A stretch of DNA of 63,534 nucleotides, the filler included, from Planctomycetota bacterium (lineage in GTDB: Bacteria > Planctomycetota > Planctomycetia > JALXBF01), in NCBI GenBank assembly GCA_026991575.1. It is 6 parts of 6 records of this genome, joined end to end, with 100 filler letters (N's around TTAATTAATTAA, not from the genome) between each part and the next. Parts side by side here need not be neighbours in the genome. Positions count along the whole stretch, not along the records: positions 1 to 25,205 come from JALXBF010000031.1; 5 more parts are not named here. The stretch is one strand, 5' to 3'. The position numbers are program-made. Of this stretch, positions 6,001 to 9,000 are shown one piece after another (the stretch's first letter is position 1; every line of letters starts with the position of its first letter).

Positions 6001-9000
6001 ACGGCATTAGCCGGTACGTCCGTGTGATCGCCGGTCAGGAGGCAGGTAGCAAGCAGGAGATGCTGCAGCGCCTGGCTGATTGCTACGAACCGTCAAGACG
6101 GTTGATGATCGGCGACGCGCCCGGGGACCGGCGAGCTGCCCAGGCCACCGACACGCTGTTCTATCCGGTGTGCCCGGGACAGGAAGAGGCTTCCTGGCAG
6201 CGCTTCTGCGAGGAAGCCTTGGATCGGTTTCTGACCGGCACTTACGGCGGTAGCTACGAGCAAGCACTGCTGGAGCAGTTCGATCGGTGCCTGTTGGAGC
6301 AGCCCCCGTGGGGTCCGTGACAGCCACGCGGTGCGCACCGGTCGGCATCACGCGCCGGTGGCCGTAGCAAATCGCCCTGGGGCCGCGTTCCCAAGAGCCG
6401 CGTCGCACCCGGTTGCCGGGCCGGGCTTGCGTGTACCTCAAGGGAAGGGGTGTGCGGTGCGGGCGGTGGTTGTTCGGGTTGACGGTCGCTGAGAGTGGCC
6501 GTAGAGTTCAAACGGAGCCGGTGACAGTGGGGGGTTAGCTCAGTTGGGAGAGCGCCAGAATGGCATTCTGGAGGTCACGGGTTCGAATCCCGTACCCTCC
6601 ACTGACTTAGGTGACAAAGGCCGGTCCGAACGGGCCGGCCTTTATTGCTGCGCCCGGTGGTCGAGCAGACCCGGCCACAACCCACGTGGTGGTCCGTTTC
6701 GTGGCCGGCTCGGCAGTGGCAGCCCGGCAACAAGTCGACGTGGGCCGGCGCAGAATGGCTGGGCAAAAGGAACGGCACCGCTTTAGCGGTGCCGTAACTG
6801 CCGGTTGCCCGTCCGAGGAAACAACGAGGTTACTCGAGCATGTTCTCCACGTCGCGGACGATCGACTTCACGACCTCGCTCTTCAGGTCGGTTGTCCCCG
6901 TGTAGCCGACGCTCTTGACCACCTTGACCGCCTTCCAGAGGATCACGGTGACCGCAGCGTCCTTGTCGATCTTGTAGCTGCTAGGAGGCGGTCCCTCGAT
7001 GTAGGTCAGCGGTACGTACTCGATGTTGTGTTTCTTGGCGAAGGCAGCCAGTTTTCGCTCGGCGACTTTGCCATCATTGGTCAGCAGCACGATGAACGCA
7101 CTCAGCTGCTTGTCCTGGTTGGCAGCGACGGCCTTGTCCAGTGCCTTGGCCAGACTGGCCAAGTTCCGGTCGAGTTTGCGCGTAAAGACGCAAACGACCG
7201 GATTTGGACCGTACTTTCACCTGTAGCAGAGGACGCCACGCTCGTCGCGTCCGATTCCCTTGACGGTCTGGCCCGTGACGTTGTGGACATTGAACGCCTG
7301 AGGCGTTGCGCCGGGCTCAAGCCCGGACCTGATTTCGCCGGCCAGCGCGAGGCCTGCGATGCAGGCGCCCGCTGCCAGCGCGCCTAAGACAATTGCTCTT
7401 CTGGACATACGTTCCTCCTCCAGTGCTCATGCTGTCGACGCACCCGGTGCGCACGGACAACCGGCTCACTTCCGATTACTATACGCGTCGCAGCCGACTT
7501 GCGTTGGAAGCTGCTGGCTGGCCCAGACGATGCGCCCCGCCACGACCGTGGCGACGGTCGTGGCCCGGATAAGCGCGTCCGCCGGGCGGTCCAACACGTT
7601 CGGCGCGACCACGGTCAGGTCCGCGTCGTAGCCGACAGCAATCCGGCCGCGACGGTGCTCGACGAACGCCGCGTATGCGGCCTGGGCCGTAAACGCATCC
7701 AACGCCTCGTCCAGACGGAGTCTTTGCCCGGGCAACCACCCGCCCCGCGGCTCGCCATCGACGGTCTGCCTGGTTATCGCCGCGTAGAGCCCCAGATAGG
7801 GCGAGACTCGTTCAACTGGAAAGTCGCTGCCAAAGGCTAAGCGGACGCCGTGGTTGAGCAAGCTACGCCAGGCGTATGCTCCGACGAGCCGTCGCCGACC
7901 GAGCCGTCGTTCGGCCCAGCGCATGTCGGTCGTCGCGTGGGTGGGTTGCATCGACGCGATAATGTTCAGCTGGGCAAAGAGCGGCATGTCTTCGGGCCGG
8001 ACCAACTGCGCGTGCTCGATGCGCAAGCGTGGATCGTCGCATGGCACCGCCTCCAGCGCACGTCGGTACGCTTGGAGCACCTCGTAGTTTGCACGGTCCC
8101 CTATGGCATGCGTGCAGACCTGCCAGCCGGTCCGCAGACACTGTTTCGTGATCCGTTCGATTTGCGCTGGCGGAGTGAGCACCAGCCCGGTCGACATCGG
8201 TTCGTCGGCGTACGGTTCGAAGAGCCACGCACCGCGTGAGCCCATTGCCCCGTCGGCAAAGAGCTTGACCGCCCTGAGCACGAACAGACGGTCCGGGTCC
8301 TGCCATTGCGGTCGTTGAGCAAGCCAGCCCCAGGGGGGGCCATCCGGTGCGGCGAGCATGCCGTAGACGCGAAGTTGAAGGTCCCCTGCCAGGTCCATCT
8401 CACGCAGCACGGTAGCTTCCTGCTCGGACAAACCGGCATCGTGCACGCATGTCAGCCCCTGACGAAGGCATTCCCGCTGCGCGAGCAGGTAGCGTCGCTT
8501 CAAATCGGCCTTGCTTGGCGGCGGGATGTGACGGGTCACCAGGGACATGGCCGCATCGAGCAGGACACCGGTGGGTTCACCGCGCTGATCGCGCAGGATT
8601 CTACCCCCTTCCGGGTCGGGCGTGTTCCGATCGATTCCGGCAATCTGTAGCGCCTTGCGGTTGCACCAGCCGGCATGGCCGCCGACGCGGCGCAGCCAGA
8701 CTGGCCGGTCCGGAATCGCCTCAGACAGAGCGTCTGCTGTCGGGAATCGGCGGTCCGGCCACAAGCTCTGATCCCACCCGTAGCCGATGATCCAGGGCAG
8801 TTCGGGATGTTTGGCCGCATAACGACGAACCTTCTGCACGGCTTCAGCTTCGCTGCGGCAATCGCGCAGGTCGACCTGCTCAAGCAGTTCGCCCAGCGTC
8901 TGTAAGTGGGCATGGCAGTCTGCCAGTCCTGGCAGGATCACCGCACCATTGAACCGTCTGACCGCGACACCCACCTTGCCGAGCTGGCGTCGGACAGCCT

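Follow-up and report, generated by a model that had tools for sequence, protein, structure and literature searches.

A putative exported selenoprotein family of Planctomycetota with a TlpA/ResA-like fold and a C-Y-R-U motif at an unusual position

The window, that is, the whole stretch of DNA analysed (63,534 nucleotides, filler included), comes from the Planctomycetota bacterium assembly GCA_026991575.1. On its minus strand, positions 7408-6830 form a single frame of 192 sense codons with one internal stop only, the TGA at 7219-7217, which is codon 64. Under table 11 this frame is divided into two ORFs, 7408-7217 (63 aa) and 7162-6830 (110 aa, TTG start), and the second of them begins 55 nt, or 18 codons, past the TGA. 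Normal termination at the TGA would leave residues 65-82 untranslated, including the nearly invariant P70, F75 and R77. TGA is also used as an ordinary stop in the source genome: the amidohydrolase gene upstream on the same strand terminates with it. The features of the locus are collected in Table 1.

Table 1. Features at the selenoprotein locus, in window coordinates.
Feature	Position	Strand	Details
Coding sequence	6830..7408	-	ATG 7408-7406, proposed Sec-TGA 7219-7217, stop TAA 6832-6830; homologues cover full length
Shine-Dalgarno-like GGAGGAGG	7414..7421	-	5 nt ahead of ATG; read from sequence
Signal-peptide-like N-terminal segment, residues 1-23	7340..7408	-	sequence; probable cleavage after A-L-A, judged by eye
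C-Y-R-U motif (predicted redox motif), codons 61-64	7217..7228	-	sequence and family conservation
In-frame TGA, probably read as selenocysteine U64	7217..7219	-	TGA in 21/48 family copies, TGC/TGT in 27
SECIS-like hairpin	7165..7202	-	15 pairs, 2-nt bulge; outer pairs reach 7215-7152; per-sequence folds
Terminator-like GC-rich hairpin, then T-rich stretch	6772..6795	-	35 nt past stop codon

The N-terminal signal peptide reported in the survey's finding is matched by a hydrophobic, signal-like segment, as judged from the sequence only. A comparable hydrophobic N-terminus is present in all homologues, and residues 1-20 have a low pLDDT (56) in the AlphaFold2 (AF2) model. A lipoprotein signal was rejected, the residues ahead of C16 giving no lipobox fit, and so was a Tat signal, the S-R-R of the window protein not being retained in relatives.

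The motif codon was read from genome DNA in 48 copies of the family. It is TGA in 21 copies from 18 genomes, the window included, and TGC or TGT in the other 27; beyond the window, 20 TGA copies were found in 17 other genomes. All 21 TGA forms keep the conserved motifs on both sides, F-x-V-x-D-V-T-G upstream and P-x4-F-x-R and L-D downstream. The recurrence of TGA at the same codon across family copies is far beyond chance. Among 65 full-length database relatives, Cys occupies the UGA position in 61 and C61 is kept in 64; Y62, G67 and P70 are likewise conserved. Of the 150 best representatives, 14 are calls of 117-130 aa starting at query residues 66-76, the 110-aa call of the window not counted, and one 63-aa call among the representatives terminates in ...LCYR. 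The short calls of close relatives had been taken to reflect a UGA, and the DNA of a further genome of the window's family (G001) indeed reads TGA at the motif codon. The TGA is also retained in an independent metagenome contig (run X2, from another study) that spans 7108-7486. This contig shows three differences only, at 7127, 7250 and 7289, which fall on the third positions of codons 94, 53 and 40, are synonymous (codons read by hand) and flank the TGA on both sides. In a tree of 46 rows, two Sec/Cys changes are enough.

A strong hairpin 3' of the UGA, also part of the survey's finding, is real, and was obtained in two folding windows: its energy is -29.9 kcal/mol over 76 nt (z -3.1, with 0 of 200 shuffles as good) and -29.3 kcal/mol over 63 nt (z -5.9). 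The apical loop CUUUAC (7187-7182) begins 29 nt past the UGA, and the last two stem residues ahead of it are G-U. A comparable hairpin, with its apex on a Phe codon about 30 nt past the UGA, was found in 21 of 21 TGA forms. The mean minimum free energy (MFE) was -29.2 kcal/mol for these 21 forms versus -16.9 kcal/mol for the 27 Cys forms, and the mean z was -2.35 versus -0.64 (one-sided Mann-Whitney p ~9e-5 on z, the relatives not being independent). Some Cys forms fold moderately well, such as L067 with -29.1 kcal/mol, and G+C is higher in the TGA forms (0.65 versus 0.54 in the Cys forms).

Bacterial SECIS elements are constrained to a distance of 16-37 nt to the apical loop, a loop of 3-9 nt and an MFE <= -7.5 kcal/mol (Fig. 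2 legend, PMC13188914), and the window stem-loop, with 29 nt, a 6-nt loop and -29.3 kcal/mol, lies within these limits of spacing, loop size and MFE. A strict scan that allowed no bulges found G at apical-loop position 1 or 2 in only 2 of the 21 TGA forms, the window not among them; a subset of real SECIS elements fails this apical-G constraint (PMC13188914). The genome's own selenoprotein genes of known type, selD and two Redoxin-family genes, have a GGU or GGUC loop at 29-32 nt, which the window hairpin matches in spacing but not in its CUUUAC loop. RNAalifold did not recover the stem from a codon alignment of the 21 hairpin regions, since the register differs by 1-3 nt from lineage to lineage. 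In a single fixed register, 59% of cells were paired and the covariation score was 0.163, compared with 0.161 for one slid control. This support is modest, and the case therefore rests on the per-sequence folds and the contrast between Sec and Cys forms, not on covariation. With its pyrimidine-rich loop on an invariant Phe codon at the distance of the consensus GGU(C), the hairpin offers a test case for the requirements of SelB.

The survey's finding of a complete Sec machinery was corroborated, since selD, selB, selA and tRNA-Sec were found together on contig C184 of the source genome (25019-29790), all over curated cut-offs. The tRNA-SeC was called by ARAGORN with the anticodon TCA, and the selD of this genome itself contains a TGA. 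Across genomes, selA was present in 17 of the 17 TGA-form genomes scanned, namely the window's and 16 of the other 17 (the scan left out G001), and absent in 18 of 21 Cys-only genomes (E<=1e-30; genomes 99-100% complete). In Planctomycetota as sampled here, 290 of 401 genomes have selA. Collectively, the single frame, the Sec/Cys pairs, the hairpin and the co-occurrence with selA support the proposal that one gene is read through the UGA as selenocysteine.

No Pfam or NCBIfam model describes the protein. Pfam gave 0 families at E<=10 for the read-through product, and NCBIfam release 20.0 together with Pfam gave no family match for it or for the 65 full-length relatives, so that the earlier statement on this point holds. 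Stray sub-threshold Pfam matches among the 65 relatives were Thioredoxin_2 in 3, AhpC-TSA in 2 (best E 0.0042) and YtfJ_HI0045 in 1 (E 0.0061). Profile-profile comparison with Redoxin and TlpA-like domains by hhalign stayed below a probability of 1%, and a profile search of PDB sequences returned nothing meaningful (best E 0.058, designed proteins). The search gave 674 clusters at 50% identity and E<=1e-3, which does not contradict the previously given figure of more than 2000 clusters, as the clustering differed. A language-model search with a natural Cys relative retrieved planctomycetal clusters only, without Pfam families. A related-locus search of genome contigs yielded only two weak, irrelevant loci, and the family relatives came from the genome search. 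Tandem-repeat relatives include repeats without the cysteines, and the scaffold may therefore also have a non-redox role. Neither the 69 neighbouring ORFs taken from 29 of the first 31 loci nor the 63 ORFs of 16 longer loci included a universally conserved gene, and a gene for a beta-propeller protein adjoins the family gene in about a quarter of loci.

The fold was modelled by AF2 with a 65-row alignment, giving a pLDDT of 90.3 and a pTM of 0.85 (84.7 and 0.82 in the survey's run). The best Foldseek matches of the model were 2ls5, 3gl3, 4nmu and 1su9 (E ~2e-6 to 6e-6). With VIA-align, it aligned to 3gl3_B with a Z of 16.8 and an rmsd of 2.1 Å over 138/141 residues, and to ResA with a Z of 15.0 over 133 residues (133/135 of the chain), model residues 34..192 lying on chain residues 39..173. 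A thioredoxin fold with an N-terminal hairpin and a central insert is thus present in the model (Z 15-17, rmsd 2.1-2.4 Å, 133-138 residues). The TlpA/ResA/DsbE-like fold proposed earlier is supported, with the same top matches, 3gl3 and 1su9, and the fold is peroxiredoxin-like as well.

The elements of the model follow one another as motif (61-64), short helix (62-66), core strand (71-76) and long helix (81-96). The place of the classical CxxC corresponds to the 77-80 loop ahead of helix 81-96, where the junction reads T76-R77-K78-L79-D80. Since the superposition with ResA runs over 133 residues from 34/39, C74 of ResA falls on model residue 67 or later, a sequential alignment being assumed. 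At the cis-Pro position, located from the predicted strands before strand 153-159 (D150-A151-A152), 57 of 65 members carry Ala (residue 151). In the model, the conserved G-K turn and core strand 1 are separated by an insert of roughly 12 residues that bears x-L-C-Y-R-U-x-Y-G-x-x-P, and C61 is predicted to cap the short helix, with U64 in the first turn of that helix. The pocket of the classical site is still conserved (R77, A151, T154, P142 and Y145), and its conserved Arg/Thr pocket contains no Cys or Sec. On this model, C-Y-R-U is a putative redox motif at an unusual spot, on a short inserted helix ahead of the core strand.

Taken together, these data lead us to the reading, with a probability of about 0.8, that a single gene at this locus encodes an exported selenoprotein that depends on UGA-Sec decoding and uses a relocated C61/U64 pair as an oxidoreductase. 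Judging by the comparative evidence, SelB and Sec-tRNA(Sec) would decode the UGA at 7219-7217 as selenocysteine, and the intra-coding hairpin at 7202-7165, with its apex 29 nt past the UGA, would direct the decoding. To judge from its sequence, the N-terminal segment of about 23 residues would direct export over the inner membrane. About 169 residues make up the mature domain, which probably adopts a TlpA/ResA/peroxiredoxin-type thioredoxin fold, as indicated by the model and the structure search, and appears to have lost the classical active site, with an R-K-L-D loop after core strand 1 and Ala at the cis-Pro position. C61 and U64 may form a reversible selenenylsulfide, which would make the protein a putative periplasmic thiol/selenol-disulfide oxidoreductase; we infer this role from the geometry of the CxxC, from two positions that hardly vary and from the exchange of Sec and Cys. 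The family is probably mostly planctomycetal with Sec forms across many lineages, and the Cys form seems to take the place of the Sec form in a large lineage without selA.

A role of the Cys/Sec pair in binding metals or metalloids (Cu, Hg, As, selenium or sulfur species), the protein then being a chaperone, carrier or sensor of the periplasm rather than a disulfide oxidoreductase, is unlikely. Among the catalogued CxxU/UxxC selenoproteins, several bind metals (PMC13188914). Sco proteins, which have the same fold and are represented among the Foldseek matches by 1xzo, use copper; the runs containing the window DNA are labelled hydrothermal vent metagenomes, and the Cys-less repeats of the tandem relatives suggest that the scaffold binds something by itself. 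However, the 65 relatives have no conserved His, Met or third Cys beside the pair, metal-handling genes are not recurrent nearby in the loci examined, and a helix-capping CxxC has the classical dithiol-disulfide geometry.

A shade less probable still is a peroxidase-like function, with U64 as the residue attacking peroxides and C61 as the resolving one, the catalytic pair having been transplanted onto a peroxiredoxin scaffold. Sec is a good peroxidatic residue, and peroxiredoxins, Tpx and Bcp score like TlpA-like proteins in the structural comparison (Z 15-16.3); in 2 of the first 31 loci, AhpC/TSA or Redoxin genes adjoin the family gene. Against this stand the absence of the PxxxTxxC(U) motif, the lack of a Pfam AhpC-TSA match beyond the two sub-threshold ones among 65 members, and the fact that neither Cys nor Sec occurs in the conserved Arg/Thr pocket at the classical site.

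We consider it very improbable that the protein is a classical TlpA/ResA/DsbE reductase, in which C-Y-R-U would be the canonical CxxC that follows core strand beta-1 and opens helix alpha-1. TlpA-like proteins are the best fold match, the motif does head helix 62-66, and hhalign with a single sequence set CYRC on the CLPC of a Redoxin, although with a non-significant probability of 0.33%. The order of elements in the model (short helix, then strand, then long helix), the placement of ResA C74 at residue 67 or beyond and the prevailing Ala at the cis-Pro position all argue otherwise. When hhalign was run against six TlpA-like domains (five from the source genome and one from a related locus), CYRC was left unaligned and the CPPC of those domains came opposite R81-A84, again not significantly. 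Furthermore, the genome's own canonical selenoproteins read W-U-P-V-C and Q-U-G-G-C after the core strand, and in the catalogued selenoproteins of the TlpA, Redoxin and Trx types the motif is UxxC or UGC rather than CxxU (PMC13188914). The survey's assignment of C-Y-R-U as a TlpA/ResA-type active site was therefore abandoned, given that the motif precedes the core strand, R-K-L-D stands at the classical place and Ala replaces the cis-Pro.

Least credible of all is termination at the TGA, leaving a broken gene or two small genes beside an incidental hairpin: automatic gene calling did give two ORFs, one base change turns a Cys codon into TGA and the loop of the hairpin is non-consensus, but the TGA is kept in 21 copies from 18 genomes with frames intact and conserved on both sides, the second ORF would omit nearly invariant residues, the X2 differences are all synonymous on either side of the TGA, and the scanned TGA forms occur only in selA-positive genomes.

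Building on the reading of an exported selenoprotein with a relocated C61/U64 pair, we tentatively suggest a history that is possible rather than probable. A peroxiredoxin/TlpA scaffold may have lost its classical site, gained a selenenylsulfide centre on the 12-residue insert and so given rise to a family of selenoproteins both ancestral in Planctomycetota and widespread there, of which annotation would see only the Cys descendants, in a lineage that lost the Sec machinery. The conserved pocket (R77, T154, P142, Y145) might then bind a substrate or partner, for example the adjacent beta-propeller protein, and leave the chemistry to the new Cys-Sec pair.

Compared by InterPro, Pfam or NCBIfam accession and Sec motif, none of the 119 families of the 2026 catalogue (Table 1, PMC13188914) fits, a comparison that excludes entries with cd- or PTHR-accessions only, and no listed family joins a TlpA-like fold with CxxU. 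The families of Haft and Tolstoy 2025 (mSystems) were compared through the NCBIfam accessions given in PMC13188914. One Sec candidate in a planctomycete genome paper of 2016 (PMC4807772) is given no name beyond 'hypothetical' and has a Cys homologue in Rhodopirellula; it could be the window's family. Set apart by model accessions and motifs, the family is likely absent from current selenoprotein catalogues; the earlier claim of an uncatalogued family thus stands as far as the 119 families are concerned and is qualified by the 2016 candidate.

With these results the bacterial selenoproteome gains a well-supported family, one from a phylum not named in PMC13188914, in which a text search for 'Planctomyc' found no occurrence. 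They also correct a systematic annotation error: because gene calling splits Sec forms in two or reduces them to stumps of 117-130 residues, databases show only the Cys forms, under the name 'hypothetical protein'. A thioredoxin-fold protein can, on this reading, relocate its redox pair and retain the scaffold, and transferring function by fold ("TlpA-like, hence CxxC reductase at usual site") would mislead here.

Compared with TlpA/ResA/CcmG (DsbE) proteins (cd02966; Redoxin PF08534, AhpC-TSA PF00578), the window family is predicted to share the overall fold, including the N-terminal beta-hairpin, and both are apparently exported. Its K-x-G-x-x-x-P-x-F-x-V-x-D-x-x-G and G-K turn resemble, by eye, the start of the Redoxin/AhpC domain. 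In contrast to those proteins, it has no Pfam or NCBIfam match, no classical CxxC and Ala for the cis-Pro, and its pair lies on an insert ahead of core strand 1 with Sec second rather than first. The thioredoxin-fold families catalogued in Table 1 of PMC13188914 are the Prx-like thiol:disulfide oxidoreductase, the thiol:disulfide interchange protein, the thiol-disulfide isomerase-like, the UGC-containing TlpA and the Redoxin families, and the source genome carries four genes of this type. Like them, the window family has Cys homologues and is predicted by Sec/Cys pairs plus a downstream hairpin; however, the catalogued ones belong to PF00578, PF13098, PF08534 or cd02966 with UxxC, UxxU or UGC at the classical site, whereas the window family has CxxU elsewhere. 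The genome's true peroxiredoxin (PF00578) selenoproteins have F-T-P-V-U and S-T-P-G-U, a motif absent in the window protein. The nearest named cluster in the language-model search is YtfJ_HI0045 (PF09695; periplasmic thioredoxin-like, of unknown function), which is of similar size and, as the window protein appears to be, exported. The resemblance lies below any threshold, and the language-model score of 0.86 serves as a lead only. In proteins of the Rdx type (PF10262), a strand is followed by a CxxU that caps a short helix. The CxxU motif of such proteins is listed in PMC13188914, and in the model the CxxU of the window protein likewise follows a strand and caps a short helix, with Sec second. 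There is no sequence match to these SelW-like/Rdx-type proteins, which are small, cytosolic and of minimal fold, whereas the window motif appears as an insert in an exported Prx/TlpA-like domain of about 170 residues.

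The window gene is a minus-strand frame whose sole internal stop is a TGA at 7219-7217 (codon 64). Under translation table 11 it is split into ORF calls of 63 aa (7408-7217) and 110 aa (TTG start at 7162), and with read-through the product has 192 residues and carries the motif L-C-Y-R-U-K-Y-G. The Amidohydro_3 gene upstream, which may be co-transcribed with the window gene, itself ends in TGA, indicating that TGA is an ordinary stop in this organism. Positions 1-25205 of the window belong to contig C31; the remainder, 25206-63534, is N or falls outside that contig.

Features of the window gene, its surroundings and the modelled protein
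Feature	Position	Strand or molecule	Basis or remark
Whole frame, ATG 7408-7406 to TAA 6832-6830	7408-6830	minus	sequence reading
GGAGGAGG	5 nt ahead of the ATG of the window gene	minus	sequence reading
Amidohydro_3 protein gene	7466-9361	minus	57 nt upstream of the window gene
Hairpin core, 15-pair stem with 2-nt bulge	7202-7165	minus	RNA folding
GC-rich hairpin, then T-rich stretch	6795-6772	minus	35 nt 3' of the stop of the window gene
tRNA-Ala (GGC)	6529-6602	plus	converges on the terminator of the window gene
N-terminal hairpin strands	41-43, 59-60	window protein	AlphaFold2 model
Short helix carrying the motif	62-66	window protein	AlphaFold2 model
Core strand 1	71-76	window protein	AlphaFold2 model
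Helix 1	81-96	window protein	AlphaFold2 model
Strand, then helix, strand	103-110, 113-126, 134-138	window protein	AlphaFold2 model
Strand, then strand, helix	153-159, 162-169, 177-191	window protein	AlphaFold2 model

The read-through protein was used as the query against whole genomes, and matches were found in 42 of 401 sampled genomes of the phylum. We read 48 family copies, taken from the loci of the genome searches and 18 further stretches. At codon four of the C-x-x-C motif, 21 copies (18 genomes) have TGA, giving CYRU, CYVU or CYIU, and the remaining 27 have TGC or TGT; a match in genome G145 also has a TGA and was excluded from the count because its motif was not seen in the scan. Protein-level conservation flanks the TGA in all 21 TGA forms, with F-x-V-x-D-V-T-G on the 5' side and P-x4-F-x-R and L-D on the 3' side, and three genomes combine a TGA form with a Cys paralogue. 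The survey's finding held that the two calls are one gene read through UGA as selenocysteine, and the single TGA and the TGA/Cys exchange among the 48 copies bear this out. Its further claim that the short calls of close relatives are as expected for a UGA was also upheld: the 54% identical copy in G001, the one other genome covered from the window organism's taxonomic family, has one TGA in its DNA, and 14 of the 150 best database representatives (the window's own 110-aa call aside) are 117-130 residues long and start at query residues 66-76, after the motif. One 63-residue database protein terminates in ...LCYR, and these stump-like calls agree with UGA read-through. An assembly slip as the origin of the TGA was ruled out, since a contig of metagenome run X2, from another study, spans 7108-7486 and retains it. 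This contig differs from the window at 7127, 7250 and 7289, all third positions (codon 94 GTC to GTT, codon 53 GGA to GGG, codon 40 AAT to AAC); in this small sample all three differences are synonymous, two lying 5' and one 3' of the TGA, which points to selection acting on both halves of the gene. An 800-nt contig from run X1 (record 2), of the same metagenome as the window, matches only window 7103-7163 (61 nt, 9 differences) and is unlike the window on both flanks; it probably represents the conserved helix-1 region as it occurs in a relative.

The genome was said to hold a complete Sec machinery, and this was confirmed: selD, selB, selA and a tRNA-Sec with anticodon TCA form a single cluster on contig C184 (C184:25019-29790; loci L001, L009, L016 and L017), and all exceed curated cut-offs. 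This selD is itself a selenoprotein gene with one TGA (...C-A-G-U-A-G-K...), and in four of the ten Redoxin-family matches in the genome the classical site contains an in-frame TGA: L088 (C87), L091 (C65), L093 (C166) and L097 (C190), with the motifs T-P-V-U, T-P-G-U, W-U-P-V-C and Q-U-G-G-C. Adding the window gene brings the organism's total to at least six selenoprotein genes. Across the phylum sample, selA was present in 290 of 401 genomes (E<=1e-30), including all 17 TGA-form genomes within that scan, whereas 18 of the 21 Cys-only genomes lacked it although they are 99-100% complete. The exceptions were G004, which has selA, and G191 and G371, which have weaker selA matches. Since the sampled genomes are related, this correspondence amounts to a pattern rather than to a statistic. 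All 18 Cys-only genomes without selA belong to taxonomic family f2, in which only one of 20 genomes in the 401-genome sample has selA; this suggests that the whole lineage lost the Sec trait, in line with the all-Cys clade seen in the protein family.

A quick maximum-likelihood tree was built from 46 of the copies, omitting a duplicate and a short row; in it the window protein paired with the G001 protein with a support of 99. The sister of this pair was an all-Cys clade of 23 rows from families f2 and f3, and three Cys paralogues were nested within the Sec forms of family f82. Two Sec/Cys changes suffice on this tree; because its root is only a midpoint, "Sec first, Cys after machinery loss" is a reading rather than a result.

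The 76 nt from just 5' of the UGA fold at -29.9 kcal/mol (z -3.1; none of 200 shuffles as good). The 6-nt loop, CUUUAC, begins 29 nt 3' of the UGA, with G-U immediately 5' of it in the stem, and the hairpin apex falls on an invariant Phe codon in 21 of 21 TGA forms. Over 63 nt, the mean MFE was -29.2 kcal/mol for the TGA forms versus -16.9 for the 27 Cys forms, and the mean z against dinucleotide shuffles was -2.35 versus -0.64 (one-sided Mann-Whitney p ~9e-5; -5.9 for the window), a contrast weakened by the higher G+C of the TGA forms. RNAalifold on the codon alignment did not recover the stem. A single fixed register gave 59% paired cells compared with 35-46% in slid controls, and the covariation score of 0.163 was nearly equalled by one slid control (0.161). 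One published bacterial SECIS constraint, as given in a 2026 review (PMC13188914), is a G in the first two apical-loop positions; a strict scan found it in only two of the 21 TGA forms, the window's not among them. GGU or GGUC loops occur 29-32 nt past the UGA in this genome's selD (GGU at 32 nt) and in two of its Redoxin-family selenoprotein genes, so that the window hairpin agrees with them in spacing but not in loop. We file it as a SECIS-like element with a non-consensus loop; the absence of the usual G bears on what SelB recognises.

Pfam and NCBIfam returned zero families at E<=10 for the window protein and only stray sub-threshold matches for its 65 full-length relatives, as the survey had reported in stating that no model covers the family. 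The relatives are labelled "hypothetical protein" by the source databases. When a natural Cys relative served as query in a language-model search, the clusters retrieved were planctomycetal and had no Pfam family; YtfJ_HI0045 and Redoxin, the closest clusters that carry a name (0.85-0.86), are a lead only. A library-wide search gave 674 clusters at E<=1e-3 (212 at the stricter E<=1e-10). The AlphaFold2 model from the 65-row alignment (pLDDT 90.3, pTM 0.85) had 2ls5, 3gl3, 4nmu and ResA 1su9 as top Foldseek matches, followed by peroxiredoxins. VIA-align gave Z 16.8 against 3gl3_B (rmsd 2.1 Å, 138/141 residues), about 15-16 against Bcp, Tpx and Prx, and 15.0 against ResA. The proposed TlpA/ResA-like thioredoxin fold was thereby supported, and the predicted order of elements is that of the TlpA/Prx topology.

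The assignment of CYRU as a TlpA/ResA-type active site did not stand. The motif (61-64) precedes core strand 1, and the classical CxxC place, the 77-80 loop of the model, reads R-K-L-D. In the ResA superposition, 133 residues were aligned (model 34..192 on chain 39..173); as no more than two of the 35 chain residues ahead of ResA C74 can be unaligned, C74 (C74/C77 numbering taken from structure entry titles) maps no earlier than model residue 67 if the alignment is sequential, which excludes 61-64 as the classical site. A profile-profile alignment with six TlpA-like domains, five from the same genome and one from a related locus, placed their CPPC opposite R81-A84 and left CYRC unaligned, at a probability of 0.75%, which is not significant. 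In the Redoxin/Prx domains of this genome the G-K turn abuts core strand 1; in the window family about 12 extra residues, x-L-C-Y-R-C/U-x-Y-G-x-x-P, come between the conserved G50-K51 turn and that strand, and we read the C-Y-R-C/U motif as a probable insert ahead of it. Immediately ahead of strand 153-159, where the cis-proline belongs, 57 of 65 members have Ala, and the classical pocket is still conserved (R77 in 54, T154 in 58, P142 in 57 and Y145 in 54 of 65).

The analysis shows the fold of the family, that both of its redox positions are conserved and that Sec and Cys replace each other; the protein is a putative periplasmic thiol/selenol-disulfide oxidoreductase. The N-terminus of the window protein is hydrophobic, with A-L-A ahead of G24, and the protein is probably exported; C61 and U64 would form a reversible selenenylsulfide. 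Several tandem repeats lack one or both cysteines (CYRT, SYRD, SYNC, SWRC or none), suggesting that the scaffold may have a role beyond redox; tandem forms of two or three domain copies include P0011 (557 aa), P0023 (386 aa) and P0045 (373 aa). Beta-propeller proteins of 410-650 residues are encoded beside or near the family gene at about a quarter of the loci, Sec as well as Cys lineages being represented. One propeller cluster, with weak Lactonase or YNCE-like matches, adjoins the family gene in 8 of the first 31 loci (L027, L028, L029, L032, L034/L084, L043, L050 and L051), the G233 propeller being a YNCE-like member of it. Further propellers occur at L025/L083 and L076, with strong PF10282 Lactonase matches in L083 and L076; G001 and G105 have such strong-Lactonase propellers adjoining the family gene or close to it. 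The propeller protein is a possible partner of the family protein. Gene context fixes no substrate: among the loci compared, the upstream amidohydrolase is common to the window and G001 only, and no beta-propeller gene lies near the family gene in the window.

Collectively, comparative evidence gives good support to the window gene as a real selenoprotein gene, with putative selenium insertion at the UGA. In its accessible text, the 2026 review of the prokaryotic selenoproteome has 119 families or subfamilies in Table 1; its TlpA, Redoxin, Trx and Prx-like selenoproteins have UxxC, UxxU, UGC or TxxU with Pfam or cd accessions, its "hypothetical" families carry NCBIfam accessions, and none of these Pfam or NCBIfam models matches the window protein or its 65 relatives (PMC13188914). 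The string "Planctomyc" was absent from the searchable text of this review and from that of the deep-Sep (PMC12013277) and BSepDB (PMC13326102) papers. As far as these texts extend, we judge the family to be absent from selenoprotein catalogues and its unusual redox site to be previously undescribed. The available text of a 2016 report on planctomycete genomes from Porphyra describes a two-piece "hypothetical" candidate in strain P1, with a reported SECIS and a Cys protein of Rhodopirellula as its closest match (PMC4807772). This candidate, comparable by description only as that text gives no sequence, may belong to the window family, which may then have been glimpsed once before as an unnamed candidate. 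Set beside the catalogued selenoproteins, the window gene represents a new family within the thioredoxin superfamily, with its redox pair at a non-classical place.
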